Shown in pieces: positions 1 through 13,292 of a stretch of 14,591 nt of DNA. Numbering within the stretch: the stretch's first letter is position 1; each line of letters begins with the position of its first letter. The notes below the pieces were generated by a model. The model saw only the letters and a program-made list of their open reading frames with translations. It made no database searches and was not told the DNA's origin. The position numbers and the translations under genes are program-made. Source of the DNA: a virus (Duplodnaviria; Heunggongvirae; Uroviricota; Caudoviricetes); the IMG/VR virus record IMGVR_UViG_3300037455_001096; one strand, 5' to 3'.

Positions 1-79
1 CTCGGTATTCCACCTTGACTTCGTAAGGCAACCTCGCGCAGAGGTCGGCACAAAACAGTTGTTGTTCTTCTTTTGTCAT
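1..79 (-). CDS. Paralog family copy 0 (N-terminal part only; runs off the window)
   Basis: Manual translation MTKEEQQLFCADLCARLPYEVKVEYR contains the family block A. An alternative ATG at 85 overlaps the stop of the upstream copy. Not in the ORF track. Confidence 0.9.
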   Translation of the reverse strand, partial: MTKEEQQLFCADLCARLPYEVKVEYR

Positions 80-84
80 AATCA

Positions 85-651
85 TTATTTTTTGGATTCG
101 TACATTCCTTTGGGTGCTTCCAAAGCGATACCTTTTTCAATCAACCCACGGTAGTCAAAGTGATGGGCGTTGAGCCAGTCGATTTCTTCAATATAAGAAC
201 CTCGACCTATATACACCGCTGAAATAACTTCTTTATCATTTTCATCCTTATAGACAATTTGTACATACCAACAACTATCAAGGAAAAATTCCGTTTCCTT
301 TATCCTCAAGTCTTTTCTATATCTTTTATCTCTTGCGAGATAAAGAGTAACCAATTCCAGTTTCTCCTCCTCGGTCATACTTGACATCGGTCGGAGATAT
401 GGAAGATTTTTGTCAAGATGTAAAGCCCTTGAAGCACTTGACATTCCGCATCCTTTATATTCAGTATAGCCTATCCATCCATCACTGTTTGTCTTAATTA
501 AAAGACCGCTTTCACTATATGCAGGAGCGTGCAGTATTTCAATTTTCCACTTATGAAAATCATACTCATCTTCTTTATAGTTAACTATTACCCCATAAGG
601 CAACCTCGCACAGAGGTCTTTTAATAGCAACTCCTTATCTTCTTGTGTCAT
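85..651 (-). CDS. Paralog family copy 1 (188 aa), hypothetical protein
   Basis: KDLCARLPY...LPYLRPMSSMTEEE...DWLNAHHFDYRGLIEKGIALEAPKGMY. Start taken at ATT-ATG 651 (alternative 657). Confidence 0.92.
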   Translation of the reverse strand: MTQEDKELLLKDLCARLPYGVIVNYKEDEYDFHKWKIEILHAPAYSESGLLIKTNSDGWIGYTEYKGCGMSSASRALHLDKNLPYLRPMSSMTEEEKLELVTLYLARDKRYRKDLRIKETEFFLDSCWYVQIVYKDENDKEVISAVYIGRGSYIEEIDWLNAHHFDYRGLIEKGIALEAPKGMYESKK

Positions 652-656
652 AATCA

Positions 657-1034
657 TTATTTTTTGGATTTGTACATTCCTTCGGGTGCTACCAAAGCAA
701 GCCCCTTTTCAATAAGCCCGTGGTGGTCGAAATGACGCTCGTTTAGCCAATCAACGTATGTCGGTATGGAATCTTCCACGCCGCCTTCGATGTCGTCCAA
801 AAAGGCGCATTTTCTCGCTTCCTCGCTTTCGGTCATATCCGACATCGGTCGGAGGTATGGTTTGATGGTTTCCTTTTCGCCAAGCGATTCGATAAAATAC
901 CCAAATCCACCGATAACGTCATCTTCTATGCTTTCCGTGAACTCAAAGTCCTCGTTCCCCCTGCGGACTACGAACCCGTAGGGCAACCTCGCGCAGAGGT
1001 CGTTGAATAGAATTCTTTTCTGATACTTATTCAT
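657..1034 (-). CDS. Paralog family copy 2 (125 aa)
   Basis: NDLCARLPY...KPYLRPMSDMTESEE...DWLNERHFDHHGLIEKGLALVAPEGMY. Start moved to ATT-ATG 1034 because the track start 1064 overlaps the upstream gene. Confidence 0.92.
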   Translation of the reverse strand: MNKYQKRILFNDLCARLPYGFVVRRGNEDFEFTESIEDDVIGGFGYFIESLGEKETIKPYLRPMSDMTESEEARKCAFLDDIEGGVEDSIPTYVDWLNERHFDHHGLIEKGLALVAPEGMYKSKK

Positions 1035-1045
1035 AATGTTTCGGA

Positions 1046-1345
1046 TTAAATTTTGTTTTTGCAAATCCCGCTATTATACACGTTATCTTCCGAATGGCTT
1101 ATCTCAAACGGAACGAAATCATCGCTGACCTCGATGGATTCAATGCACGGGGTTTCACATCTGAACATATCGCCGTATTTCTTGAACCATTCGTCACGAA
1201 GCCAATCGCGGAAACTGTTCAGTTCATCAAGATGCTTTTCCGCATTCTCTCTGTTCGTGTACCAAACGCTGCATTTGTAGTACCACCGCTCCCATTCGCA
1301 GGTATCGGCGTTGTTGTATCTGAAAATCGCTCTGTATATAGTCAT
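1046..1345 (-). CDS. Hypothetical protein (99 aa), unrelated to the family
   Basis: Fills the gap between copies 3 and 2 on the coding strand. Trp/Tyr-rich; no motif recognised. Confidence 0.8.
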   Translation of the reverse strand: MTIYRAIFRYNNADTCEWERWYYKCSVWYTNRENAEKHLDELNSFRDWLRDEWFKKYGDMFRCETPCIESIEVSDDFVPFEISHSEDNVYNSGICKNKI

Positions 1346-1374
1346 AGCATTACTAAACTTTTGTAATCAATTTA

Positions 1375-1758
1375 TCATTCAAAAACATACATACCTTTTG
1401 GCGCGGGCAGCGCAAGCCCCTTTGCAATCAAACCTCGGTAGTCGAAATGATGCTCGTTCATCCAATCGAACAACATCGGGCTTATCGAATATTTCACCTG
1501 CGACAGCGCGTATTCTATGAAAGGCTCTTCCGTCAAGATGAACAATTCGCTGTCAAACCAATCTGACAAAATACGGGAAATTCTGCTGTATTCCTTTTCC
1601 GTCATATCTGACAGCGGGCGGAGATACGGTTTGCAATCCTCCATTCTCACGGAGCGGCTGTATTCTGTGTAGTCCACAGTACCGCCGCGATACTCCACCA
1701 TCGTATGGTAGGGAAACCGTGCGCACAAATCCTTAATCAGAAGTTCTTTTTCTCCCAT
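1375..1758 (-). CDS. Paralog family copy 3 (127 aa)
   Basis: KDLCARFPY...KPYLRPLSDMTEKE...DWMNEHHFDYRGLIAKGLALPAPKGMY. Confidence 0.92.
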   Translation of the reverse strand: MGEKELLIKDLCARFPYHTMVEYRGGTVDYTEYSRSVRMEDCKPYLRPLSDMTEKEYSRISRILSDWFDSELFILTEEPFIEYALSQVKYSISPMLFDWMNEHHFDYRGLIAKGLALPAPKGMYVFE

Positions 1759-1763
1759 AACCT

Positions 1764-2210
1764 TTATTCAATGTTATATATTTCTTTTGGTGCTGCTATC
1801 GCAAGACCTTTCTCAATAAGTCCGCGATAATCAAAGTGATGTTTGTTCAGCCAATCAATCTGCTCGACCGCTTTGATGAACGGGAATTTGACGTTGTAGA
1901 ACACAGATTCAATTTCCGTCATATCCGACAGTGGGCGCAGATAAGGTTTCACTTCGCTGATGTCCACCCATTGGCTGTCAAACTGTTCTTGGAAATACTC
2001 GTTCTTATCATCATTTTCGTCACACAGAACAAGGTGCAGTGTTTTTTCGTCCGTGTTGGCTTCGAGTACCCAAGCGGGAAAATCCACGGTGTTGTATTCG
2101 CTGTGGAATTCATAGTCAACGTCATAGTCTATTTCGACATAGACATAAACGTCATAGGGAAGCCGTGCGCACAAATCCAAAAACAGAAGTTCTCTCTCGT
2201 TGTCGCTCAT
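1764..2210 (-). CDS. Paralog family copy 4 (148 aa)
   Basis: LDLCARLPY...KPYLRPLSDMTEIE...DWLNKHHFDYRGLIEKGLAIAAPKEIY. The first variable segment is very acidic. Confidence 0.92.
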   Translation of the reverse strand: MSDNERELLFLDLCARLPYDVYVYVEIDYDVDYEFHSEYNTVDFPAWVLEANTDEKTLHLVLCDENDDKNEYFQEQFDSQWVDISEVKPYLRPLSDMTEIESVFYNVKFPFIKAVEQIDWLNKHHFDYRGLIEKGLAIAAPKEIYNIE

Positions 2211-2211
2211 A

Positions 2212-2913
2212 TCAAAGTTCGTTTAAATCTGCGGTGATGTATGCAATCTCGTCTATCATAATGTCGAATGTGGGGTATGCCGTTATAGCGGTTTCAAGTT
2301 CAAGTTCGGTCAGCGTTTCGTCAATGAGACCCCTCACAAGGTACTCTGGCACATTCTCGCACCTCTCGTACATCGAGTCAAGCCTCTCCAAAAACGGTGT
2401 TTCGTCATAAATGGTTTTGCCTTTCAGCATATAGCGGAGCGTATTGTACGATGACATACCGATGTGCTTGTGGCTGTTGTCGCATTCGTACATACCTGCG
2501 GGGGCTTCAAGTGCCAAGCCTTTCCCAATCATACCGCGATAGTCAAAATGGTGTTCGAGTAGGTAATCCACAAATTCGGGAAGGTCGTGTTCATAGATGA
2601 GGTAGTCCACGCAGTTAGAACCGTAATCGTGTTCTTGTCTGTAGAAGTCGATTTCCTTTTTCTCATCCTCGCTCATACTTGACAGCGGGCGCAAATAGGG
2701 TTTGATTACATCGTTGCTGTTCCACGGGTCGATAACGACTTCGTATTCATCGCGGTAATCCAACCCCTTGGCATCATCGTGGAAGCAGAAGTAGTTGAGC
2801 CTCCTGCCCGTCAAGGTCATAACCTTACCGTTTGTCGGAACATAGCATTTGAGGTCGTATGGCAACCTTGCGCACAGTTCCTTTCTTATGAATCCCAATT
2901 GTTCTGCAAGCAT
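2212..2913 (-). CDS. Paralog family copy 5 with a C-terminal extension of about 90 aa (233 aa)
   Basis: KELCARLPY...KPYLRPLSSMSEDE...DYLLEHHFDYRGMIGKGLALEAPAGMY, followed by an extra acidic, probably helical region (2212-2487). Confidence 0.92.
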   Translation of the reverse strand: MLAEQLGFIRKELCARLPYDLKCYVPTNGKVMTLTGRRLNYFCFHDDAKGLDYRDEYEVVIDPWNSNDVIKPYLRPLSSMSEDEKKEIDFYRQEHDYGSNCVDYLIYEHDLPEFVDYLLEHHFDYRGMIGKGLALEAPAGMYECDNSHKHIGMSSYNTLRYMLKGKTIYDETPFLERLDSMYERCENVPEYLVRGLIDETLTELELETAITAYPTFDIMIDEIAYITADLNEL

Positions 2914-2915
2914 AA

Positions 2916-3452
2916 TCAGTCGTTTTTGGTTACATACATATTTTCGGGGGCTTTCACAGCCAACCCTTTTCTAATAAGACCGCGATGGTCAAAATAGTGG
3001 CTGTCAAGCCATTGTTCGAGCCATTTGTAATCCTCGAAGTCGGCATCCGTGTCATTGTCCAAAAAACCTTGGCTGTGATGTCTGATGCTGACATTATCGC
3101 AACAAATGTCAAAAACGTAGTTCTTTGACAATTCCCCGCGTTCATCTTCGGTCATATCCGAAAGCGGGCGGAGGAACGGGCGGACTCTCTGTTTAGTGAG
3201 GTTGTTTAATACTTGGATTCTTTTGTGCTTCTGCTCAAAGAAACCTTTCGGATTCAATTCGGGGGTGATGCTGTGCGTGATAAGCGTTGTTTCCCCGCCG
3301 ACCCCGATTATCTTGTAATATTGGGGACATTTATCCGAAGGTGTCGCCGACTTGTTGTCATTGTCGTACAACGGCGACTTTTCCACAATGACACCCTGCG
3401 GAAGTCTTCGGCAGATGTCAAACATAACCAATGCTTGTTCTTCTTTTGTCAT
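2916..3452 (-). CDS. Paralog family copy 6 (178 aa)
   Basis: FDICRRLPQ...RPFLRPLSDMTEDE...QWLDSHYFDHRGLIRKGLAVKAPENMY. Confidence 0.9.
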   Translation of the reverse strand: MTKEEQALVMFDICRRLPQGVIVEKSPLYDNDNKSATPSDKCPQYYKIIGVGGETTLITHSITPELNPKGFFEQKHKRIQVLNNLTKQRVRPFLRPLSDMTEDERGELSKNYVFDICCDNVSIRHHSQGFLDNDTDADFEDYKWLEQWLDSHYFDHRGLIRKGLAVKAPENMYVTKND

Positions 3453-3592
3453 TTCACTCTGAAATATAGTTTACCAAATAAATGAATCCTTCCGTTGTTC
3501 ACGGGGTCATAATCTCTGTGCGGAAAAAACCATTTCCACCACTCCAATCTCCCGAAGGAGATGTATTCGCCAGTTATAACTTCGCTGTTCAT
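3449..3592 (-). CDS. Small hypothetical protein (47 aa), not in the ORF track
   Basis: Manual translation MNSEVITGEYISFGRLEWWKWFFPHRDYDPVNNGRIHLFGKLYFRVK*. ATGA stop/start overlaps at both ends (3589-3592 and 3449-3452) fill the gap exactly. Confidence 0.75.
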   Translation of the reverse strand: MNSEVITGEYISFGRLEWWKWFFPHRDYDPVNNGRIHLFGKLYFRVK

Positions 3593-3870
3593 AATGAGTT
3601 TACAATTTTCCAACATTTGTCCTCAACGTGCCAAACCTCGTTGTTCTTCAGATGTCCGAGTATCTCCCATTTCAGCACCTTCCAAGCGACAGCCTCATAG
3701 AAGAAAAACGGGTTGTCGGGGTTCATAGAGTTTACAACGTCTATTGTCGCATATATAATACTCGACACAAGTTCTTTCGTTGCATCGTCCATTTTTTCCA
3801 ACTCTTCCCGTCCGAGTTTTCTCAATTCAAAATCGTTGAGCGGTTTCTTTGATGATTCTGCGTCATTCAT
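3589..3870 (-). CDS. Hypothetical protein (93 aa)
   Basis: Coding-strand ORF between copies 7 and 6. Start moved to GAT-ATG 3870, just after the copy 7 stop. Confidence 0.8.
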   Translation of the reverse strand: MNDAESSKKPLNDFELRKLGREELEKMDDATKELVSSIIYATIDVVNSMNPDNPFFFYEAVAWKVLKWEILGHLKNNEVWHVEDKCWKIVNSL

Positions 3871-3874
3871 ATCA

Positions 3875-4306
3875 TTATTGTTTAATTTCATACATCCCCT
3901 CTGGGGCTACCAAGGCGAGATTCTTCGCGATAAGCCCGTTGTAATCGAAATGATGGGCGTTAAGCCAATCCGCGACAAAGCCGCACATAGCAAATGTGAT
4001 GAGCGAACAGTATTCTTCAAGCGTGCATCCTTCAGAGAAATAAATGCCGATGTTGTCCACCTGCTCGGCATCGTAAATCCTTTTCAGTTCGTTCTTCTCG
4101 TCCTCCGTGATGCTTGCCATCGGACGCAGGTAAGGTCTGATTGCATAGATACTCATACCGTTCAGCAACTTATGCGCGTTGTATGTGTTGAGAACAATAT
4201 CCGCGTCCTCGCCGTTCTTGTGGAAATGCGCGTGCTTGACTTTCACGTTGTACGGAAGTCTGCCGCACAAATCCCTTAACAAAATTGATTTTTCCTCTTG
4301 TGTCAT
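3875..4306 (-). CDS. Paralog family copy 7 (143 aa)
   Basis: RDLCGRLPY...RPYLRPMASITEDE...DWLNAHHFDYNGLIAKNLALVAPEGMY. Start 4306 (MTQEEK) matches the starts of other copies. Confidence 0.92.
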   Translation of the reverse strand: MTQEEKSILLRDLCGRLPYNVKVKHAHFHKNGEDADIVLNTYNAHKLLNGMSIYAIRPYLRPMASITEDEKNELKRIYDAEQVDNIGIYFSEGCTLEEYCSLITFAMCGFVADWLNAHHFDYNGLIAKNLALVAPEGMYEIKQ

Positions 4307-4308
4307 AG

Positions 4309-4563
4309 TTAATCGTTCCAATTGATAACACCGCTTGTTTTTACGCTCACCTTGACTTCGGGTATTGTCATAGGTCTGTTGCTTCTGCGACCGTTTCCGC
4401 TGTAATGCACGATGTTTATGCTCGCCGTCAAGTCAACGGTCATTTTCATAGCAAGGCAAGCCTCGCTGTACCTTTGCAGGAATTCGTCAGTTTCCTTTCT
4501 GATTCTGTCGGCTAACTGACTTTTCATTTCCTCCAAAACCTCGTCTGTTTTTTCTTTTTCCAT
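4309..4563 (-). CDS. Hypothetical protein (84 aa)
   Basis: Fills the gap between copies 8 and 7. Start at ATT-ATG 4563, or at 4575 by ATGA overlap. Confidence 0.75.
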   Translation of the reverse strand: MEKEKTDEVLEEMKSQLADRIRKETDEFLQRYSEACLAMKMTVDLTASINIVHYSGNGRRSNRPMTIPEVKVSVKTSGVINWND

Positions 4564-4571
4564 AATCAATA

Positions 4572-4988
4572 TCATTCTTCGTTATACATCTCCCTGCTCG
4601 CCTCGATTGCCAATCCCATTTCAATGAGACCTCGGTAGTCGAAGTGATGCGTGTTCAGCCAATCCAATGCCCGCACGCCGAGCGTGAATATCTTCGGCTT
4701 ACCCTGCACCCCGCATCCGAAATGGATTCCGTTGTCGGTCTTGACAGCCTTTTGGAATTCGTTGTACTCGCTTTCCGTCATACTCGACATATGGCGCAGG
4801 TACGGTTTCGCCGAACCGCAGTAAGTCAGCCATTCCAAATCGTTAGCGTCAAGGATTTTGTCATAGACATCGTTTTTCACTTTGTCCGTGTCCCAATCCA
4901 TTCGCGGGAACGTGCCTTTCACCCTAACTCCGTAGGGCAACCTCGCGCAGAGGTCGGCAAACACAAGTTTTTTGTCTTTCTTTTTCAT
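4572..4988 (-). CDS. Paralog family copy 8 (138 aa)
   Basis: ADLCARLPY...KPYLRHMSSMTESE...DWLNTHHFDYRGLIEMGLAIEASREMY. Start moved to 4988 (MKKKDKK). Confidence 0.92.
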   Translation of the reverse strand: MKKKDKKLVFADLCARLPYGVRVKGTFPRMDWDTDKVKNDVYDKILDANDLEWLTYCGSAKPYLRHMSSMTESEYNEFQKAVKTDNGIHFGCGVQGKPKIFTLGVRALDWLNTHHFDYRGLIEMGLAIEASREMYNEE

Positions 4989-5101
4989 ATCAAATGAAAT
5001 GCTGATAATACAAACAGCCCACCGAGAAACGCCCCGATAACAAGACCGATTGAGAACCAATTTCCGTCAGCAAGCAACATATCCTTTGTCTCTTTTTTCA
5101 T
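4985..5101 (-). CDS. Small single-pass membrane peptide (38 aa), not in the ORF track
   Basis: Manual translation MKKETKDMLLADGNWFSIGLVIGAFLGGLFVLSAFHLI*. Hydrophobic stretch with GxxxG motifs, GTT-ATG start, and ATGA overlap with copy 8. Confidence 0.7.
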   Translation of the reverse strand: MKKETKDMLLADGNWFSIGLVIGAFLGGLFVLSAFHLI

Positions 5102-5107
5102 AACTTT

Positions 5108-5827
5108 CTAACTTCTTGTGAATGGACATTCCTCTGGAACAAAATCAATTCTCTGATTCGGCGTATGGTTGCGAGCCGTACACGAAGTCTTGTTCCAAGG
5201 AATGCGTTTGTAAACATTTTTCTTCATTTTCTTGCAGTATATGTCGCAGTTTTCATCGCTGCCCTTTGATGTTTTGACATTTGCGAGCGGGCATTCGCTG
5301 CAAAATTCAATGTCAACCGACATCGTGAGAATAGCCTTGGTTGTTTTCATCGACTTCGGAGGATAGAGATATTTTGGTGCTTCGAGTGCCAAGCCCATAC
5401 CGATAAGACCGCGATGGTCGAAATGATGCTCGTTCATCCAATCGATGAGCGTGTCGCAATCGACATCTTTGACATAGGTGCATTCAGAACCCGTATGCCA
5501 ACCACCATCGTTTGCATTGGAGAGTTTTGAGTTATTCACGCCGTATTTGCTTGCGTAGAACCTTTTGTCCGTGGTGTCTAATATAGCCTTAATCTCTTCC
5601 TCGCAGATGCTTGTGATGGGGCGAAGGTAAGGTATGCACTCACCGAACCCGCATTCCAACGGATATTCGTAATCGAATGTGAGTTTGAGGTTTGCATAGT
5701 CTATCGACTTCAGAATGGCATCAACCATTCCGTCACCGCTGTCAACACGGCACATAACACCGCAATGGAGTCTTGCGCCAAGTTCCTTCATCAAAAGTCG
5801 GATTTCGTGTTCAGTACGTTTTTCCAT
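5108..5827 (-). CDS. Paralog family copy 9 with a C-terminal Cys-rich domain of about 80 aa (239 aa)
   Basis: KELGARLHC...IPYLRPITSICEEE...DWMNEHHFDHRGLIGMGLALEAPKYLY, then MKTTKAIL...CSECP...CDIYC...C...CP. True start is ATT-ATG 5827; the track prefix is a shifted-frame reading of copy 10. Confidence 0.9.
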   Translation of the reverse strand: MEKRTEHEIRLLMKELGARLHCGVMCRVDSGDGMVDAILKSIDYANLKLTFDYEYPLECGFGECIPYLRPITSICEEEIKAILDTTDKRFYASKYGVNNSKLSNANDGGWHTGSECTYVKDVDCDTLIDWMNEHHFDHRGLIGMGLALEAPKYLYPPKSMKTTKAILTMSVDIEFCSECPLANVKTSKGSDENCDIYCKKMKKNVYKRIPWNKTSCTARNHTPNQRIDFVPEECPFTRS

Positions 5828-5831
5828 AATC

Positions 5832-6332
5832 TTACGCTTTAATATTGTACATACCTTTGGGTGCTGTGAGTGCCAACCCCTTTTCGATAAGACCACGGTG
5901 GTCGAAATGATGCGAATGCAGCCAATCCATAAGCCAACACCAATCTTCCATATACACCCGCGCAGTGTGGTGTTCCTCGGTGCAGTCATCATCATCCATA
6001 TCGAAGTAGTCGCCGACAAGCACGATTTCGTCATTGTAAATCACGCCGTTTTCGTTAGCCCAAAATTTCTCGGTATCTTGCAATGCTTTCCTTTCCCTTT
6101 TTGTCATACTCGACATAGGGCGCAGGTACGGCTTGACATCCCATATACGTTTCCAACCGCTTTTCCAAGGGTCGCTCGCCCTCAAATGAATCAATTCCCC
6201 GCTTTTTGTCGCGTTGATTTGGGTAAGCGTCCCGTCAAACGATTCTCCATCGGATTCGCAGCGGCAAACCACTTCGCAAGTGAGCCTGCATCCGAGGTCT
6301 TTGACTAACAGTTCGGTTTCTTTTCTTGTCAT
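5832..6332 (-). CDS. Paralog family copy 10 (166 aa)
   Basis: KDLGCRLTC...KPYLRPMSSMTKRE...DWLHSHHFDHRGLIEKGLALTAPKGMY. Start moved to ATT-ATG 6332. Confidence 0.92.
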   Translation of the reverse strand: MTRKETELLVKDLGCRLTCEVVCRCESDGESFDGTLTQINATKSGELIHLRASDPWKSGWKRIWDVKPYLRPMSSMTKRERKALQDTEKFWANENGVIYNDEIVLVGDYFDMDDDDCTEEHHTARVYMEDWCWLMDWLHSHHFDHRGLIEKGLALTAPKGMYNIKA

Positions 6333-6339
6333 AATCGTA

Positions 6340-6813
6340 TTATTTGTACATTTCTTCCGATGCGTTGACCGCCAACCCCATTTGGATAAGACCGAGAAAA
6401 TCAACGTGATGCTCGTATAACCAAGTATAGTAATCGTAGTTGCCATAGAACTCGTGGACGCTGCACGGGATTTTCTCCCCGCTTTTGCCTTCGATTTCAA
6501 ATTCGAGTTTCTGCAATTCCTCCAAGTCTGTGTGCTTCAGTTTCATATTGTAGATATGCGCCATTCGCAATCGGCTTGCCGTAAGAATGTCATTTTTCGG
6601 AAGGTCGCGCAGTCTGTATAGGCAGGGTTTGAAGTTTTCCATAACACAGTTGAAACGGACTTTGCCATCCTCTACAACGGTAAGCCGAATGTCGCCTTTG
6701 TTGTACGTTATGCCTTCGAGAACGCACTTGTGTCCTTCATTGTCGAGAACCAATGAATAAGGCAGTCTTGTCGACAGTTCCCTATACAATATCTGTTTCT
6801 CTCTCTGTTCCAT
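6340..6813 (-). CDS. Paralog family copy 11, most diverged (157 aa)
   Basis: RELSTRLPY...KPCLYRLRDL...TWLYEHHVDFLGLIQMGLAVNASEEMYK. Start moved to GAT-ATG 6813. Confidence 0.88.
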   Translation of the reverse strand: MEQREKQILYRELSTRLPYSLVLDNEGHKCVLEGITYNKGDIRLTVVEDGKVRFNCVMENFKPCLYRLRDLPKNDILTASRLRMAHIYNMKLKHTDLEELQKLEFEIEGKSGEKIPCSVHEFYGNYDYYTWLYEHHVDFLGLIQMGLAVNASEEMYK

Positions 6814-6820
6814 ATCTTTG

Positions 6821-7252
6821 TTATTTGTACATTCCTTTTTTTGCGGGAAGCGCGAGACCCTTTTCAATAAGCCCGCGATAGTCAAAGTGCCTTGCGACCA
6901 ACCAATCCAAGTAATCGTATGCTCTGTGCGCGAATGTCCATTCCTCTTTCTGCGGTTCTCTCGTGAATTTCACGATTTCGTCCCGCTCCTCGTCAGTCAT
7001 ACTCGACATAGGGCGCAAATACGGCGTGAGTATAAGTTTCCGCTCACCGTAGTTCTGCGCGACAAAGGAGTTGAGCAGGTTGCTCTTTCCGACTTTCAGT
7101 TCGGTGTCATACGGCTCTCGCTCGTCATAAAACCAATCGCCCGTGACTTTCACAACGACACCTTTCGGCAGACGTGCGCACAAGTCGGATACCAACTCGG
7201 AGAATTCTTCCTCGCTCATAATGCTTTTGTCAAGTTTTCTTCTGATTACCAT
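6821..7252 (-). CDS. Paralog family copy 12 (143 aa)
   Basis: SDLCARLPK...TPYLRPMSSMTDEE...DWLVARHFDYRGLIEKGLALPAKKGMYK. Start at 7252, or at the later MSEEE ATG. Confidence 0.9.
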   Translation of the reverse strand: MVIRRKLDKSIMSEEEFSELVSDLCARLPKGVVVKVTGDWFYDEREPYDTELKVGKSNLLNSFVAQNYGERKLILTPYLRPMSSMTDEERDEIVKFTREPQKEEWTFAHRAYDYLDWLVARHFDYRGLIEKGLALPAKKGMYK

Positions 7253-7256
7253 AATG

Positions 7257-8108
7257 CTAATTGTCGTTTGTTGTTTCTTCGCCCGCCCAACCGACAAGTT
7301 TCTTCACGATTTCCCAAATATCATCGGGCATCTTATACGAATATCTGTCGGTGTTGTGGACATCACCGAATCGTTTGTCCACTCTGTCGGTAATGTAAGT
7401 CCTTTCGTGGATTCCCAAATACAAGGCGTAATCCAACATAAACCTCGGCGTGTTCTTGTAGCAACCAATAATGCCACTCGACCTTTCGGCGAGTTTTTCC
7501 CGCTTCTCTTCGAGAGAATTCGCGGTTTCCTTGACATCATACGGGTCATACGTCATTTCCAACCATTCCTCGACCCTTCTGAACATATACCCTGGGTGTA
7601 TTGATTCGTATGACGAGAAATCGTCAGTCTCGCAATCAGACAACTTGGTTTTCTGTTCGATAGCCCATTCGTTGCCGCAGTCTTTGCACTTGTTCACGGG
7701 ATAGGTATCCAACTCACCGTCAATCTTCGAGTGGAACGATGCGTCCGACACGTGGCTTGAAATGAATAATCCGCTCGAACTGTGCGATGATGCGTGTCCG
7801 CTGCCTTTGCCGTGCAGTTCACCCTTGACCCTTTTGATGTGATGAATGACATTCTTGCTCTTGCAGTTCGGACACACTTCGTTTTTTTCACGCACAACGC
7901 TTTCGCGGGATTCATATATCTTCACGGCTTTCTCCGTTTCCCTTTTATGATAGCCTTTCAGCCAATCCTCAATCATTTTCTTGCGCTCTTGGTATGCCTC
8001 GCGAGCCTTTTTAGCGTCTTCAAGACGCTTCTGTTCCGCAGCCTTTTCTTCAGCCTGCTTCTTGGCAAGCCTTGCCTGCCGTCTTGCTTTTATTCCGAAT
8101 AAGTCCAT
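7257..8108 (-). CDS. Hypothetical protein with an N-terminal charged helix and a CxxC...CxxC zinc-ribbon-like motif (283 aa)
   Basis: Lys/Ala/Glu/Arg-rich N-terminus, then VCPNCKSKNV ... KCKDCGNEW separated by a Ser/Gly/His-rich insert. Start moved to GAT-ATG 8108. Confidence 0.85.
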   Translation of the reverse strand: MDLFGIKARRQARLAKKQAEEKAAEQKRLEDAKKAREAYQERKKMIEDWLKGYHKRETEKAVKIYESRESVVREKNEVCPNCKSKNVIHHIKRVKGELHGKGSGHASSHSSSGLFISSHVSDASFHSKIDGELDTYPVNKCKDCGNEWAIEQKTKLSDCETDDFSSYESIHPGYMFRRVEEWLEMTYDPYDVKETANSLEEKREKLAERSSGIIGCYKNTPRFMLDYALYLGIHERTYITDRVDKRFGDVHNTDRYSYKMPDDIWEIVKKLVGWAGEETTNDN

Positions 8109-8119
8109 ATCTTTATTTT

Positions 8120-8368
8120 TTAGTCGGTTATCATATCGTTGATTTTCTCCAAGATGTCGTTGTACGCTTTCTCTTTCGTTGGACACATAGAACAGAGATA
8201 GTACCAATAACTCTTGCTGTGTACGTGGGCGGGTTGGTTGTTTTCGTCATAGTAGCCGTAACTCCACCAATCCTTGAACATCTCGTCATCGTAGGTGTCG
8301 ATTGACAATGTGTATGTAACACCCCCATACACTATGCTTTTCGGTAATTTTTCTTTTTCTGCTGCCAT
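8120..8368 (-). CDS. Hypothetical protein (82 aa)
   Basis: Tyr/Trp-rich ORF. ATG 8368 lies immediately after the promoter-like motif at 8369-8391; the track start lies inside that motif. Confidence 0.8.
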   Translation of the reverse strand: MAAEKEKLPKSIVYGGVTYTLSIDTYDDEMFKDWWSYGYYDENNQPAHVHSKSYWYYLCSMCPTKEKAYNDILEKINDMITD

Positions 8369-8404
8369 ACTATAATATAATAAAAAAATCGGAGACGCAC
8401 AAAA
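8369..8404 (-). promoter_or_regulatory. Repeated promoter-like motif B, copy 1
   Basis: The minus strand reads TTTTGTGC-N5-CGATTTTTTTATTATATTATAGT directly before an ATG. The 23-bp core is identical to 13259-13281. Confidence 0.7.
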
Positions 8405-8952: not shown

Positions 8953-9369
8953 TTACAGTTTTTCGATTATGCTTTTGATTAGTTTTGCGTCCACGGCGTT
9001 TTTGTATCCGCCTTCTAACTTGGGCTTGTTTGACGCTGTGAAATAGACGATGCTTCCATCGCTTTTGTCGAGCATCTCTTGCAGTTTGGATTTGCATTCC
9101 TTCACTCCGCATTTCTTCACGAAGGCAACGATTATGTCAGAAGCCTTTGAGTAGTCATAGTAGGTGGGCGACCAAGTTCCGCCGAGGACGTTGCTCGACT
9201 TGACAACGAATGAGTTTCCCGACAAACGTTCCTCTATGCACGGGGATTCCTTTGATTCGCCCTTGACCACACAGATGATTGCATCCATAAGTTTGCTTTC
9301 GATTGCGGTCTTCTTTGCCACGATTTCTTCGAGTTCCTTGTAAATCTTTTCTATTTCTTTCATAACCAT
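8953..9369 (-). CDS. Hypothetical protein (138 aa)
   Basis: First gene downstream of the left inverted-repeat promoter. Start at 9369 or 9363. Confidence 0.82.
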   Translation of the reverse strand: MVMKEIEKIYKELEEIVAKKTAIESKLMDAIICVVKGESKESPCIEERLSGNSFVVKSSNVLGGTWSPTYYDYSKASDIIVAFVKKCGVKECKSKLQEMLDKSDGSIVYFTASNKPKLEGGYKNAVDAKLIKSIIEKL

Positions 9370-9371
9370 CG

Positions 9372-9456
9372 TTTTTGATTACGCTGCAAAAATACAAAAT
9401 TTTTTATACACTCGGCATTTTTTTCTGAAAAAGTTATCAACAAAGTTATCAACAAT
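9372..9456 (-). repeat. 85-bp perfect inverted repeat, left arm; contains an outward-facing TAnnTTTG promoter element and a 12-bp tandem repeat
   Basis: The reverse complement is identical base for base to 10951-11035. Contains AAAGTTATCAAC x2 (9430-9453) and TATTTTTGCAGCG on the minus strand. Confidence 0.97.
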
Positions 9457-9488: not shown

Positions 9489-9716
9489 ATGGCACACATA
9501 ATGAGAATTGACGAATACGCAAGCAACAACAGCCAAATCAACGCTATTCTTCGTGAACTCGAAGCGAAGAAACGCGACTATGAGTTGGATGGTGTTGAAC
9601 TTACGGAAGAAGATGCCCAAACGGTCATCAACTTTATGAACAGCGATAATATGTCGCAGGAAGAGGCAATACAAGCGACATTAAGCGGAATCAGCGATTG
9701 CCTTTCACAAGAATAA
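9489..9716 (+). CDS. Small acidic hypothetical protein (75 aa), N-terminus MAHIMRIDE
   Basis: ORF after an AT-rich leader; shares its N-terminal motif with the next gene. Confidence 0.85.
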   Translation: MAHIMRIDEYASNNSQINAILRELEAKKRDYELDGVELTEEDAQTVINFMNSDNMSQEEAIQATLSGISDCLSQE

Positions 9717-9724
9717 AGAAAATT

Positions 9725-10108
9725 ATGGCACACATTAAAACTATTGACGAAATGCAAGAACACGGCGGACGTGTCGTGAACGAGGAATTCCATTCCCACC
9801 AATTTGACAACCAACTTCGTTTCTTGGAAAACATCATTGACGACAACGACCTCGCTGTCTTAATCAAGGACGTTTCGGAAAACACACCGTACAAACCAAA
9901 CGAGGTTGTTGATGACATAGAGGATTTCTTCTATGAGTGCAAGGGTATGACCGAAACCTGCAACGGTACAAACGAGGTCACTTGCAGGGATAATCTATCG
10001 TACAACATTGCCATCATCGATGAAAACGGCGAAATGTACGCGAGCATAGATTTCCAACTCATATACTACAACGAAAACACGGTCAGTGCGCTGCAACAGA
10101 GATTCTAA
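9725..10108 (+). CDS. Acidic hypothetical protein (127 aa), N-terminus MAHIKTIDE
   Basis: Start moved to ATT-ATG 9725, 8 bp after the upstream stop. Ends shortly before the terminator hairpin. Confidence 0.85.
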   Translation: MAHIKTIDEMQEHGGRVVNEEFHSHQFDNQLRFLENIIDDNDLAVLIKDVSENTPYKPNEVVDDIEDFFYECKGMTETCNGTNEVTCRDNLSYNIAIIDENGEMYASIDFQLIYYNENTVSALQQRF

Positions 10109-10603: not shown

Positions 10604-10879
10604 CTATTTTAATTCGGTAAGCCCGTAAAGTTCAGCCTGCGTTATAGGCTCTTCCCGTTTCGGGTCTATTCCGTAGATGGACGCGATTAGCGGGAAGTCC
10701 ACAATTTTCTTCGGGTCAAGTAACCAATCGTTTTCCTCATATTGGAAAGCCCAAGCCGTTCCGAATCTCGAAACCATAATCTTGCGTGCATCCGACCAAG
10801 AATCGGCGGTTATCACCGTGTAGCAGTTTCTGTGCGGGTCGTCAATGCCGCAGCCGAATGTGAAATAGTATTTTTTCAT
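10604..10879 (-). CDS. Hypothetical protein (91 aa)
   Basis: The YYFTFG...AR..M...FG..WAFQYE pattern resembles small phage hypothetical proteins (recalled, not searched). Ends TAG-TAA. Confidence 0.82.
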   Translation of the reverse strand: MKKYYFTFGCGIDDPHRNCYTVITADSWSDARKIMVSRFGTAWAFQYEENDWLLDPKKIVDFPLIASIYGIDPKREEPITQAELYGLTELK

Positions 10880-10894
10880 ATCTTTGGTTTTATG

Positions 10895-10914
10895 TAATAT
10901 AATAAAAAAATCGG
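10895..10914 (-). promoter_or_regulatory. Repeated promoter-like motif B, copy 2
   Basis: The minus strand reads CCGATTTTTTTATTATATTA, sharing a 19-bp core with the other copies, 15 bp upstream of ATG 10879. Confidence 0.65.
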
Positions 10915-10950
10915 AAAACCGTCAGAATTTGTGTATTTATCAAGCATTCG

Positions 10951-11035
10951 ATTGTTGATAACTTTGTTGATAACTTTTTCAGAAAAAAATGCCGAGTGTA
11001 TAAAAAATTTTGTATTTTTGCAGCGTAATCAAAAA
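10951..11035 (+). repeat. 85-bp perfect inverted repeat, right arm; contains an outward-facing TAnnTTTG promoter element
   Basis: Identical to the reverse complement of 9372-9456. TGTTGATAA at 10953-10961 and 10965-10973; TATTTTTG at 11013-11020, 23 bp before ATG 11044. Confidence 0.97.
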
Positions 11036-11043
11036 GCGAAGAT

Positions 11044-11664
11044 ATGAAACAGTACAAATTCGTCAGAGTACACAAGAAAGGAACGAGTGAATACGGCTGT
11101 TGGTATTTCAAGCCGCAGAGCCTCGATGACGTCAATCTCCATTGGAAAGAGATTTGCGGTTCTGAAATCAAGAAGCACGTGCAGGAGCGTTTTGAAAAAT
11201 CCGTTCTTGTGGAGCGCGAGGGCAAAGAGCCGTATATATCCGCACCTCATCCGACAACGCAGTTCGGTATGGGTGTCGAAGCGTACCTGCAAGTCGTGAA
11301 CGGCAACTATGCTCTCGGTATGCTCGAATTGGAAAACATCGCATACAAGACAAGGGTTGAATCCTATATGAAAGGGGATGACATCTACCTTGCCAACGGT
11401 ATGACCATCTATATGATTGACGACCGATTCTTTGAAATCGCCGAAACAGTCGAAACCGACAAATTCGCGTTTCCGACAAAAAAGGATTGGTCGCTCGATG
11501 ATGTCCGATATATGCAGTGGAATATGCTCGGCAACAAAGGTCAGCATTGGTACGCGAAAATCGGCAACCGCGACATCTACGATGAAGCGGGCAGAATGAA
11601 ATGGGACACCAAGGACGAGGCTACGAAAGCCGCCGAATGGTTCATCAGCAACAAACTGAAATAA
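11044..11664 (+). CDS. Hypothetical protein (206 aa)
   Basis: First gene after the right inverted-repeat promoter; GAT-ATG start. Confidence 0.85.
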   Translation: MKQYKFVRVHKKGTSEYGCWYFKPQSLDDVNLHWKEICGSEIKKHVQERFEKSVLVEREGKEPYISAPHPTTQFGMGVEAYLQVVNGNYALGMLELENIAYKTRVESYMKGDDIYLANGMTIYMIDDRFFEIAETVETDKFAFPTKKDWSLDDVRYMQWNMLGNKGQHWYAKIGNRDIYDEAGRMKWDTKDEATKAAEWFISNKLK

Positions 11665-11688: not shown

Positions 11689-11904
11689 ATGGCACAGACT
11701 AAAATGACTCTTGATAATTTCATCAAGTTCCTCACGAAAATCAGAGACAAGAACAACGCGGGTGACTACATTGTTATGAATACAAGACTCGACCACCGCA
11801 GACACGGCATATATGAATACCTTGTGAATATGCAGAGAGGCGACATCTTTGTAGACGACAACAACAAGAGTGTGGAAATATCACCGAGAATCAATTTTTT
11901 CTAA
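11689..11904 (+). CDS. Hypothetical protein (71 aa)
   Basis: ATT-ATG start; co-oriented within the cluster. Confidence 0.78.
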   Translation: MAQTKMTLDNFIKFLTKIRDKNNAGDYIVMNTRLDHRRHGIYEYLVNMQRGDIFVDDNNKSVEISPRINFF

Positions 11905-11922: not shown

Positions 11923-12348
11923 ATGTTAAAGAAAGAATCACAACTGCTTTGCTCCGACCTCTGCGCAAGATTGCCGTATGGGGTTATCTGCCGCACCATT
12001 GTCGGGGACTATCGTTTGCTCGGCATAGACTTCGACCGAGAAACGTACAGATTCGACTCCCCGATTTACGAGGAGGGCGATGACATATTCGATTTCCAAC
12101 ACGGCGGGGTCAAGCCATATCTCCGCCCGATGTCGAGTATGACAACGAAGGAGTGGTGCGAATACAGCAACAGTGTAATCGAGGACGACAAATCCGCCGT
12201 TTTGGTCAGAAACGCATACAGATTTGTGCCAACCAAGCATCGCGAGAATTGGCTTAATGCACATCACATTGATTACAACGGGCTTATCGAAAAGGGTCTT
12301 GCCCTGCCAGCCCCCGATGGTATGTATCAAACAATCAATAACAATTAA
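11923..12348 (+). CDS. Paralog family copy 13 (141 aa), isolated on the opposite strand
   Basis: SDLCARLPY...KPYLRPMSSMTTKE...NWLNAHHIDYNGLIEKGLALPAPDGMY. Confidence 0.92.
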   Translation: MLKKESQLLCSDLCARLPYGVICRTIVGDYRLLGIDFDRETYRFDSPIYEEGDDIFDFQHGGVKPYLRPMSSMTTKEWCEYSNSVIEDDKSAVLVRNAYRFVPTKHRENWLNAHHIDYNGLIEKGLALPAPDGMYQTINNN

Positions 12349-12360
12349 AAAACAGCAATT

Positions 12361-12591
12361 ATGGATTACAACAGTTTTATGACATTTGCGATGATATTCC
12401 TTTTGTGTGTTGTCGGATTTCTTGTGGTGTTCACCAACGTGTTCAGCATAAAAATTGTGTTGGAGGATTGTGTGAAAAAGAAAAACAGAACAAAGGGCGA
12501 CATTTTCTTCGCTATAATAATTTCGTTTCTTGTGATTCTGCTTGATTGCATTTCCGCAATCGGAGTCATAGTGTGTGCAATTTCAAAATAA
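12361..12591 (+). CDS. Small two-TM membrane protein (76 aa)
   Basis: Two hydrophobic stretches separated by a basic loop (KKKNRTK); paralog of the next gene. Confidence 0.82.
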   Translation: MDYNSFMTFAMIFLLCVVGFLVVFTNVFSIKIVLEDCVKKKNRTKGDIFFAIIISFLVILLDCISAIGVIVCAISK

Positions 12592-12613: not shown

Positions 12614-12841
12614 ATGAATTACGAAAGTATATTGTTATTCGCGGCAAAGTTTATCGCCATCGTGGTGACTTGGCTCATAGTAATCGTCAATATCCTTGTG
12701 GTGAACAACGTGGTTGATTGGATAAAGGAGGACAAAAAAGACATCATAGATTGGTTCTATATCATTGTTGCATCATTATCACTCGCACTGCTTGACTTCA
12801 TTTGCGTTATCGGTGCTGTTCTCTTTTTTACGATAATATAA
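12614..12841 (+). CDS. Small two-TM membrane protein (75 aa), paralog of 12361-12591
   Basis: MNYESILLFA vs MDYNSFMTFA; LLDFICVIG vs LLDCISAIG; near-identical leader. Confidence 0.82.
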   Translation: MNYESILLFAAKFIAIVVTWLIVIVNILVVNNVVDWIKEDKKDIIDWFYIIVASLSLALLDFICVIGAVLFFTII

Positions 12842-13236: not shown

Positions 13237-13246
13237 GGAGATTGTT

Positions 13247-13281
13247 TTTGTGCATTTACGATTTTTTTATTATATTATAGT
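13247..13281 (+). promoter_or_regulatory. Repeated promoter-like motif B, copy 3
   Basis: TTTTGTGC-N5-CGATTTTTTTATTATATTATAGT upstream of ATG 13287/13293; the core is identical to the copy at 8369-8391. Confidence 0.7.
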
Positions 13282-13292
13282 ATAGAATGATT

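Follow-up and report, generated by a model that had tools for sequence, protein, structure and literature searches.

Conserved flanks serve as crossover sites for variable segments in several well-described systems, such as pilE/pilS of Neisseria, vlsE of Borrelia and mosaic phage tail fibres, and T4 and T4-like phages carry variable sets of small accessory genes, the internal proteins and hyperplastic accessory regions, that are thought to counter host defences. Here, we describe a gene array to be compared with these systems, which is located on a DNA stretch of 14,591 nucleotides (hereafter, the window) from a phage of the Caudoviricetes (IMG/VR virus record IMGVR_UViG_3300037455_001096). 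The window is a fragment of a huge uncultured rumen or gut phage and carries 14 genes of one family: on the minus strand at positions 2-7219, 12 copies that are intact plus one that is truncated by the window edge, as obtained from the list of open reading frames (ORFs), a six-frame motif scan and an alignment, and a fourteenth, dispersed copy outside the array range (copy 13; 11923-12348, plus strand; 141 aa), on the strand opposite to the array. Three blocks, A (DLCARLPY), B (KPYLRPMSSMTEEE) and C (DWLNxHHFDYRGLIEKGLAxxAPxGMY), were found in each complete copy, and these blocks, collectively referred to as the frame, are separated by two variable segments, V1 between A and B and V2 between B and C.

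Like pilE/pilS, vlsE and the tail fibres, the array family exchanges variable segments at conserved flanks, so that many combinations are made from a pool. Unlike pilE/pilS and vlsE, every array copy is complete, intact and probably expressed, and there is no single expression site with silent cassettes; the family differs from all three systems in that exchange takes place between paralogs and between phages, and in that the product is small and probably cytoplasmic, not a surface antigen or receptor binder. Like the accessory sets of T4, the array consists of variable small genes of a large phage that differ between close relatives, but its proteins would have a three-block structural core, not the short N-terminal capsid-targeting sequence of the T4 internal proteins. 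A stable scaffold with concentrated variability in a phage accessory protein is also a feature of the targets of diversity-generating retroelements, but the array shows replacement of whole segments with length change instead of adenine-directed substitution. No reverse transcriptase was matched in the Pfam scans of window ORFs, which covered part of the ORFs (the largest ORF in the window is 316 aa), and no template/variable repeat pair was found in the window, where the only long near-identical repeat is an intergenic inverted repeat (9358-9456/10951-11049).

Exchange of Variable Segments

V1 and V2 assort independently across the family, in a bimodal pattern. For this analysis, 376 non-redundant members with all three anchors were used, taken from fetched loci and proteins. 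Among the 172 pairs sharing V1 at 60% identity or more, global identity of V2 was below 25% in 124, at least 50% in 35 and intermediate in 13, and the reverse test with the 183 pairs sharing V2 gave 120, 35 and 28 pairs for the same classes of V1. The background identity between random members was 19.8%, 15.9% and 77.9% for V1, V2 and the frame, respectively. Frame identity was 80%, i.e., the background level, in pairs sharing V1 only and 94% in pairs sharing both segments; because of this high frame identity, the latter pairs are regarded as orthologues.

Individual cases give the same picture. In the pairs L072/P0061 and L036/L050, for example, V1 is 100% identical, but V2 differs in length and is no more similar than background. 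In the window, copy 1 (85-657, minus strand; 190 aa) is a mosaic: its V1 (63 aa) is 62-70% identical to that of five outside members with unrelated V2, and its V2 (61 aa) is 87% identical to that of a copy in locus L002 with unrelated V1. The protein P0249 has a copy-1-like V1 joined to a copy-3-like V2. The nearest relative of every window copy lies outside the array, in another phage. Because every copy is closer to such an outside relative than to its array mates, the array is not the product of a recent local amplification, and the amplification that an earlier reading of the same DNA (the initial annotation) had proposed is not upheld in this sense.

The place of exchange can be seen by comparison with a 4-kb contig from another sample (L097), which has the same gene order as the window. 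This contig is 97-100% identical to window positions 703-4571 except for two sharply bounded replaced tracts. The first tract (window 1720-1316, 40-65% identity) has its left edge in block A of copy 3 (1375-1758, minus strand; 127 aa, with a V1 of 25 aa, the shortest in the window); copy 3 and its L097 counterpart are identical through VEYRG, after which V1 is moderately different and V2 unrelated. The second tract comprises everything left of about position 715 and starts in block C of copy 2 (657-1034, minus strand; 125 aa; with a stop that overlaps the copy 1 start); copy 2 and its counterpart are the same through DWLNE and divergent after it, and another gene follows in L097. The recombination breakpoints lie in conserved blocks, A of copy 3 and C of copy 2. 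In copy 7 (3875-4306, minus strand; 143 aa), a small V1 patch diverged from L097 (window 4240-4181, 85% identity). The initial annotation had stated that an identical fixed array in related phages would speak against its reading; L097, with replaced tracts in copies 3 and 2, carries no such identical array.

Selection on the frame and on the variable segments was analysed at two time scales. Among the window paralogs, the proportion of differing sites in frame codons was 0.76 for synonymous sites (pS), which is saturated, and 0.26 for nonsynonymous sites (pN), and the exact nucleotide runs common to paralogs were at most 30 nt long (median 11 nt). These codon data indicate that selection at the protein level maintains the frame. 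That recent gene conversion keeps the frame conserved was rejected because synonymous sites are saturated. At the same time, the frame offers short homologies for recombination. Against L097, the ratio of nonsynonymous to synonymous substitution rates (dN/dS) in the frame was 0.31, compared with 0.21 in V1 and 0.41 in V2, where the replaced copy 3 raises the value; the C-terminal extensions and interleaved genes described below had 0.11-0.14. Since dN/dS of V1 and V2 is low and cassettes are exchanged at conserved blocks, the substitution data point to short-term purifying selection on V1 and V2 and to diversity arising from segment replacement, not from fast point mutation. Uniform purifying selection on V1 and V2 had been put forward beforehand as a mark of ordinary old divergence; both segments do prove to be under purifying selection against L097, yet the bimodal assortment and the breakpoints contradict old divergence.

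Predicted Fold and Pairing

AlphaFold2 (AF2) monomer models were obtained for copies 3 and 4. The model of copy 4 (1764-2210, minus strand; 148 aa, V1 68 aa, V2 17 aa), with a predicted local distance difference test score (pLDDT) of 87 and a predicted template modelling score (pTM) of 0.82, has in order an N-terminal helix (A), four long beta strands (V1), a final KPYLRP strand (B) and an MTExE-initiated helix, after which come V2, which is short, and block C, made up of the DWLN helix and an extended tail at the C-terminus. The model of copy 3 (pLDDT 83) has the same A/B/C elements, while its V1 is a short hairpin and its V2 consists of three helices. Because the two models agree on these elements, blocks A, B and C are predicted to form one shared conserved core, to which V1 and V2 would be added as modules of differing size and structure. 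The V1 strands run on into the block B sheet; in copy 3 they make a short hairpin, in copy 4 a Tudor/SH3-like barrel. Of the scaffold with two variable surface inserts proposed in the initial annotation, the common core of A, B and C is therefore retained in the two models, but V1 is not a loose insert, as it extends the block B sheet. A family-wide rule of beta V1 and helical V2 was considered and dropped, as a composition test gave no clear difference.

In comparison with solved structures, copy 4 resembled SAWADEE, the TDRD3 Tudor domain and SGF29 at VIA Z 5.3-6.0 with a root-mean-square deviation (rmsd) of 2.0-3.1 Å over 60-70 residues, scores that fall in the "common" range of the tool; the best VIA match had Z 6.0 and rmsd 2.0 Å over 65 residues, and Foldseek E-values of 0.039 or higher denote a weak likeness. 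For copy 3, no solved fold analogue was found (best VIA Z 2.5; Foldseek E of 0.55 or higher). Since the minimal copy 3 has no analogue, the models suggest that the barrel likeness is a property of the V1 cassette of copy 4 and that the frame itself is without a solved match. Fold searches of PDB, BFVD, AFDB clusters and the ESM Atlas gave unnamed viral clusters and weak generic small barrels (Pelota N-terminal domain, PemK and Tudor). One 216-aa cluster fused to DUF6794 is among the AFDB, BFVD and Atlas matches.

For a homodimer of copy 3, the interaction prediction score from aligned errors (ipSAE) was 0.46, and the best of three controls gave 0.00. In the calibration of the tool, 20 of 30 proteins solved as pairs of one chain attained this mark, as did one of 23 solved as single chains, counts that hold only roughly here, since our own alignment was used for the prediction of copy 3. 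Three runs had contact agreement of at least 93% and partner pLDDT of at least 73. The predicted interface is composed of residues 3-22, 43-67 and 91-124, i.e., blocks A, B and C; on the symmetry axis, residues 12, 13 and 97 of one subunit meet the same residues of the other, and polar residues that are conserved form pairs between subunits (e.g., 108 with 10 and 104 with 14). In this interface, 41 of the 51 positions with conservation of 70% or more are included (odds ratio 12.3, p = 7e-10). The A/B/C core is thus predicted to form a symmetric dimer with intertwined subunits.

In-frame fusions of two family domains were seen in six or more clusters, which fits domains working in pairs. Six such proteins (P0121, P0122, P0125, P0126, P0129 and P0133), all from other metagenomes, are 272-388 aa long and have two different family domains joined by a short linker (e.g., ...GMYKMIGMTQEEKE...). 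They resemble neighbouring genes whose intervening stop codon was lost.

Distribution of the Family

The hidden Markov model (HMM) of the family matches all 13 complete copies, and the profile of window copies detected 7,160 clusters (50% identity) at E<=1e-3, of which 3,691 were at E<=1e-10; because of these two results, the observed array is far beyond chance. A search with a single copy gave 2,185 proteins of similar length, nearly all of which are unnamed metagenomic sequences. In IMG/VR, relatives are encoded in 311 stretches, mainly on contigs of 80-413 kb, and related 20-kb loci have 1-23 copies each. In five whole phage records of 413, 388, 353, 361 and 132 kb, 48, 29, 20, 16 and 3 matches were found, respectively. 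The profile search, which had been suggested at the outset as a check of copy number, thus gives up to 48 matches per phage genome. By our estimate, which is not a measured value, the family takes about 5% of the length of the 413-kb record; a family with a visible share of the genome in huge phages has nevertheless remained without a name, a Pfam model or a solved relative.

Among species-representative genomes, matches were found in rumen metagenome-assembled genomes (MAGs) labelled Prevotella, Bacteroidales and Paludibacteraceae. Phage-like single contigs of 410 kb and 286 kb are also among these matches, namely ONIZ01000001.1 (410 kb; "Firmicutes RUG343"; L086/L091) and CACYXI010000001.1 (286 kb; "Bacteroidales RUG12352"; L085/L088/L089), each with several family copies. 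Both are probably huge-phage genomes placed in bacterial bins.

The PHROG family phrog_10841, of unknown function, matches 12 of the 13 complete copies at E-values of 5e-9 to 1.4e-3. The first ten copies tested all match (5e-9 to 2.3e-4), copies 10 and 11 match at 1.2e-5 and 1.4e-3, respectively, and copy 9, for which E<=0.1 was not reached, is the sole complete copy left unmatched. These weak, partial matches extend over the regions of blocks A/B and of block C. The whole-window megablast search had no match among GenBank phages, and tblastn of two copies against 50,697 GenBank phage records found nothing even at E<=1. Since the matches to phrog_10841 are weak and partial and no GenBank match was obtained, the window copies belong to an uncultured huge-phage branch that is poorly represented in this PHROG. 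The link to Bacteroidota phages, which the initial annotation had drawn, is weakly backed by phrog_10841 and by the Prevotella and Bacteroidales labels on rumen MAG contigs.

For the copies, Pfam gave sub-threshold noise only and NCBIfam gave no match; among curated defence and immunity families, there was no Pfam or NCBIfam match. A PDB sequence-profile match to the fibronectin-binding protein 9mlu_C (E 0.0093, about 50 residues) was weak and was rejected as chance. Full-text literature searching found no paper on the family or on DUF6794. A diversified repertoire of a phage family without assigned function, as the initial annotation described it, is supported; the family has no Pfam or NCBIfam model and matches only one PHROG, of unknown function, and no profile assigned a housekeeping function to it. 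Domains and regions fused to family domains are DUF6794, a WDGH domain, an Aldolase_II-like fragment and long N-terminal regions without known identity, and fusion partners were dropped as a functional clue because none was informative.

Possible Function and Rival Explanations

The observations may be explained as follows. The array would be a repertoire of 14 members of a huge-phage-specific family, each protein having a core made of A (N-terminal helix and LPY), B (last beta strand and helix cap) and C (C-terminal helix and extended tail). This conserved core would pair with a second subunit, and V1 and V2 would ride on it as variable modules; through recombination within the DNA coding for the blocks, paralogs as well as different phages would exchange V1, V2 or entire halves of genes. 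The likeliest role of the proteins would be bivalent binding of variable proteins of the host or of competitors, serving host takeover or counter-defence. For the frame-plus-cassette anatomy and the exchange mechanism taken alone, we consider this explanation highly probable; for the whole including the binder role, its chance is somewhat short of even.

Because the copies are small, neutral to acidic, tightly packed and located among small genes without a known family, and because the family is limited to large phages, variable between close relatives and composed of variants each under purifying selection, we lean, although only tentatively, towards a set of bivalent binders directed at variable proteins of hosts or competitors. 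The isoelectric points (pI) of the copies are 4.3-6.9, and this neutral-acidic charge fits protein binding better than nucleic-acid binding; DNA or RNA binding was considered unlikely for the same reason. If the proteins bind host factors, nature would offer in this family a large library of small binding proteins with two modules each, and the family would also mark conflict between phages and their Bacteroidota hosts in rumen and gut. In our view, the new points of the present study are that breakpoints within conserved blocks between two nearly identical phages show how the repertoire renews, the selection analysis, a minimal frame without a solved analogue, and a predicted shared dimer core as a structural reason for three fixed blocks.

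It is also conceivable, but doubtful, that the shared dimer core lets co-expressed copies pair freely, so that recognition would be combinatorial in two layers, the swapping of DNA cassettes and the mixing of subunits. In this case, n copies would give up to n(n+1)/2 bivalent proteins, i.e., 105 from 14 copies and more than 1,000 from 48, and the need for mutual compatibility would explain the extreme conservation of the frame. We know of no phage report of such a form of combinatorial diversity.

Several points weigh against the explanation proposed above. The overlap of interface and conservation is partly circular, since the core of a monomer would also hold conserved residues; the dimer is a prediction made with our own alignment, and the two-domain fusions could be read-through or assembly artefacts. 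The models cover two copies, and V1 and V2 may not be exposed in every copy. Homology detection is weak in segments of 17-60 aa, a weakness of which the bimodal result and the DNA breakpoints are independent. A scan for sigma-70 promoters and terminators stayed at chance level, which leaves spacing as the evidence for co-transcription of the array. Finally, Pfam, NCBIfam, PDB sequence and fold searches gave no functional analogue, target or indication of anti-defence activity.

Among the rival explanations, the one that survives best, though it is rather unlikely, is a set of adaptors in which the frame docks on one conserved phage or host partner and V1 and V2 decide what is brought to it. 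The predicted homodimer would then stand in for the true complex; in AsiA of phage T4, the dimer face doubles as the sigma-binding face. Docking would account for the extreme frame conservation held by protein-level selection (77.9% on average, against the background level of V1 and V2) and for the many polar residues among the conserved ones (D, R, H, H, D, R, E and K), which are more than a simple dimer core usually needs. However, these conserved polar residues pair across the predicted interface (108-10 and 104-14) of a homodimer whose prediction passes while the controls give 0.00, and a candidate for the docking partner did not emerge, the fusion partners (DUF6794, WDGH and the Aldolase_II-like fragment) being varied and uncharacterised.

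Another possibility is that the proteins are packaged in the virion and injected together with the DNA, like the internal proteins of T4, of which IPI has a role against host restriction; the logic of a variable repertoire would fit this as well. The frame would then be for packaging, and the variable parts would act in the new host cell. This alternative is improbable, because the conserved part is composed of three blocks over the whole protein and is not a short cleavable N-terminal tag, and because the array is located among small unknown genes and not among structural genes.

A polyimmunity-type locus, in which every copy would neutralise another toxin, be it an abortive-infection effector of the host or a toxin made by competing bacteria or phages, is given an equally low chance. 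Tandem arrays of diverged paralogs of one small-protein family are reportedly typical of such loci, and the present proteins are small and mostly acidic; but in family scans of the window neither toxin genes nor known immunity families turned up, and up to 48 copies per phage genome would be unusual for an immunity set. Ordinary old divergence of tandem duplicates, with V1 and V2 as fast-evolving loops and no cassette exchange, could by rate differences alone yield conserved blocks and unalignable V1 and V2 within the window, but it is very improbable, as it is contradicted by the bimodal identity of the second segment when the first is shared, by pairs with 100% identical V1 and unrelated V2 of different length, and by the sharply bounded replaced tracts in the 97-100% identical L097 together with low short-term dN/dS of V1 and V2, unless L097 is a chimeric assembly and the discordant pairs are artefacts.

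Gene Copies of the Array

The alignment comprises the 13 complete copies (12 of the array and copy 13), for which an ATG about 10-13 codons before block A was chosen as the start codon, giving a common N-terminus MxxxEKxLL in all copies. The motifs [DE]L[CGS]xRLP[Y], KPYLRP[ML]SxMTxxE and DWLNxHHFDYRGLIxKGLAxxAPxxMY occur in this order in 13 of 13 complete copies, every one of which is an open frame. V1 is 25-71 aa and V2 17-61 aa long, and each window copy is alone in its own V1 cluster and its own V2 cluster. The initial annotation was therefore accurate as to the 12 complete copies and one truncated copy with their blocks, the intact frames, both length ranges, which measurement reproduced exactly, and the failure of V1 and V2 to align between copies. 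Its head-to-tail order is not a strict one, because three unrelated small genes are interleaved (1046-1345, 3589-3891 and 4309-4575).

The truncated copy 0 (2-79, minus strand) has, of the three blocks, block A alone; its first 26 residues (MTKEEQQLFCADLCARLPYEVKVEYR) are in the window, and the remainder lies beyond the left window edge. In addition to the copies described above, the following minus-strand copies were found: copy 5 (2212-2913; 233 aa), copy 6 (2916-3452; 178 aa), whose V1 of 71 aa is the longest, copy 8 (4572-4988; 138 aa), copy 9 (5108-5827; 239 aa), copy 10 (5832-6332; 166 aa), copy 11 (6340-6813; 157 aa), which has the most divergent frame (LSTRLPY / PCLYRL / HHVDFLGLIQMGLA), and copy 12 (6821-7219; 132 aa), the first array gene in the direction of transcription. 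Copies 5 and 9 have C-terminal extensions of about 90 aa, about 95 aa in copy 5 and a Cys-rich one of about 90 aa in copy 9, for which no homologues were found among fetched loci and proteins except near-identical copies of the same genes. The extension of copy 5 is kept in L097 under purifying selection (pN 0.012, pS 0.099). The interleaved genes, which do not belong to the family and are also on the minus strand, encode 99 aa (1046-1345; kept in L097 and purifying, pN 0.008 and pS 0.10), 100 aa (3589-3891; kept in L097) and 88 aa (4309-4575).

Adjacent array genes lie -17 to 136 nt apart, with several stop and start codons overlapping or almost touching. Because the genes are tightly packed on one strand, they are probably co-transcribed and made together. 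A scan for the Bacteroidota-type promoter pattern TTTG-N17-23-TAnnTTTG gave 0 matches, and a tRNA search found none.

Remainder of the Window

Outside the array, the window has small genes without a known family. The gene directly upstream of the array (7257-8207) encodes 316 aa; the N-terminal part of the protein is rich in Lys and Glu and probably a coiled coil, and two CxxC pairs resemble a zinc ribbon. Its family matches are weak and sub-threshold. The arms of the inverted repeat at 9358-9456 and 10951-11049 are 99 nt long and 94% complementary, and flank a 1.5-kb segment with two plus-strand and two minus-strand small genes. Each arm is just upstream of an outward-facing gene run (8953-9369, minus strand; 11044-11664, plus strand), and the repeat may be a duplicated promoter or leader region or may delimit an invertible segment. 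An AT-rich motif (TATAATATAATAAAAAAATCG...) is present in both orientations in three intergenic regions (8367-8404, 10872-10917 and 13246-13283) and may be a phage promoter or terminator element.

Two adjacent paralogs (12361-12591 and 12614-12841) encode membrane-protein-like products of 75-76 aa and have a 54-nt stretch with 80% identity over their ribosome-binding and start regions. The genes at 9489-9716, 9698-10108 and 11689-11904 resemble one another in their start region (AATAAA..ATTATGGCACA), and their products start with MAHI.. or MAQT.., which suggests a repeated translation-start cassette or a small paralog group.

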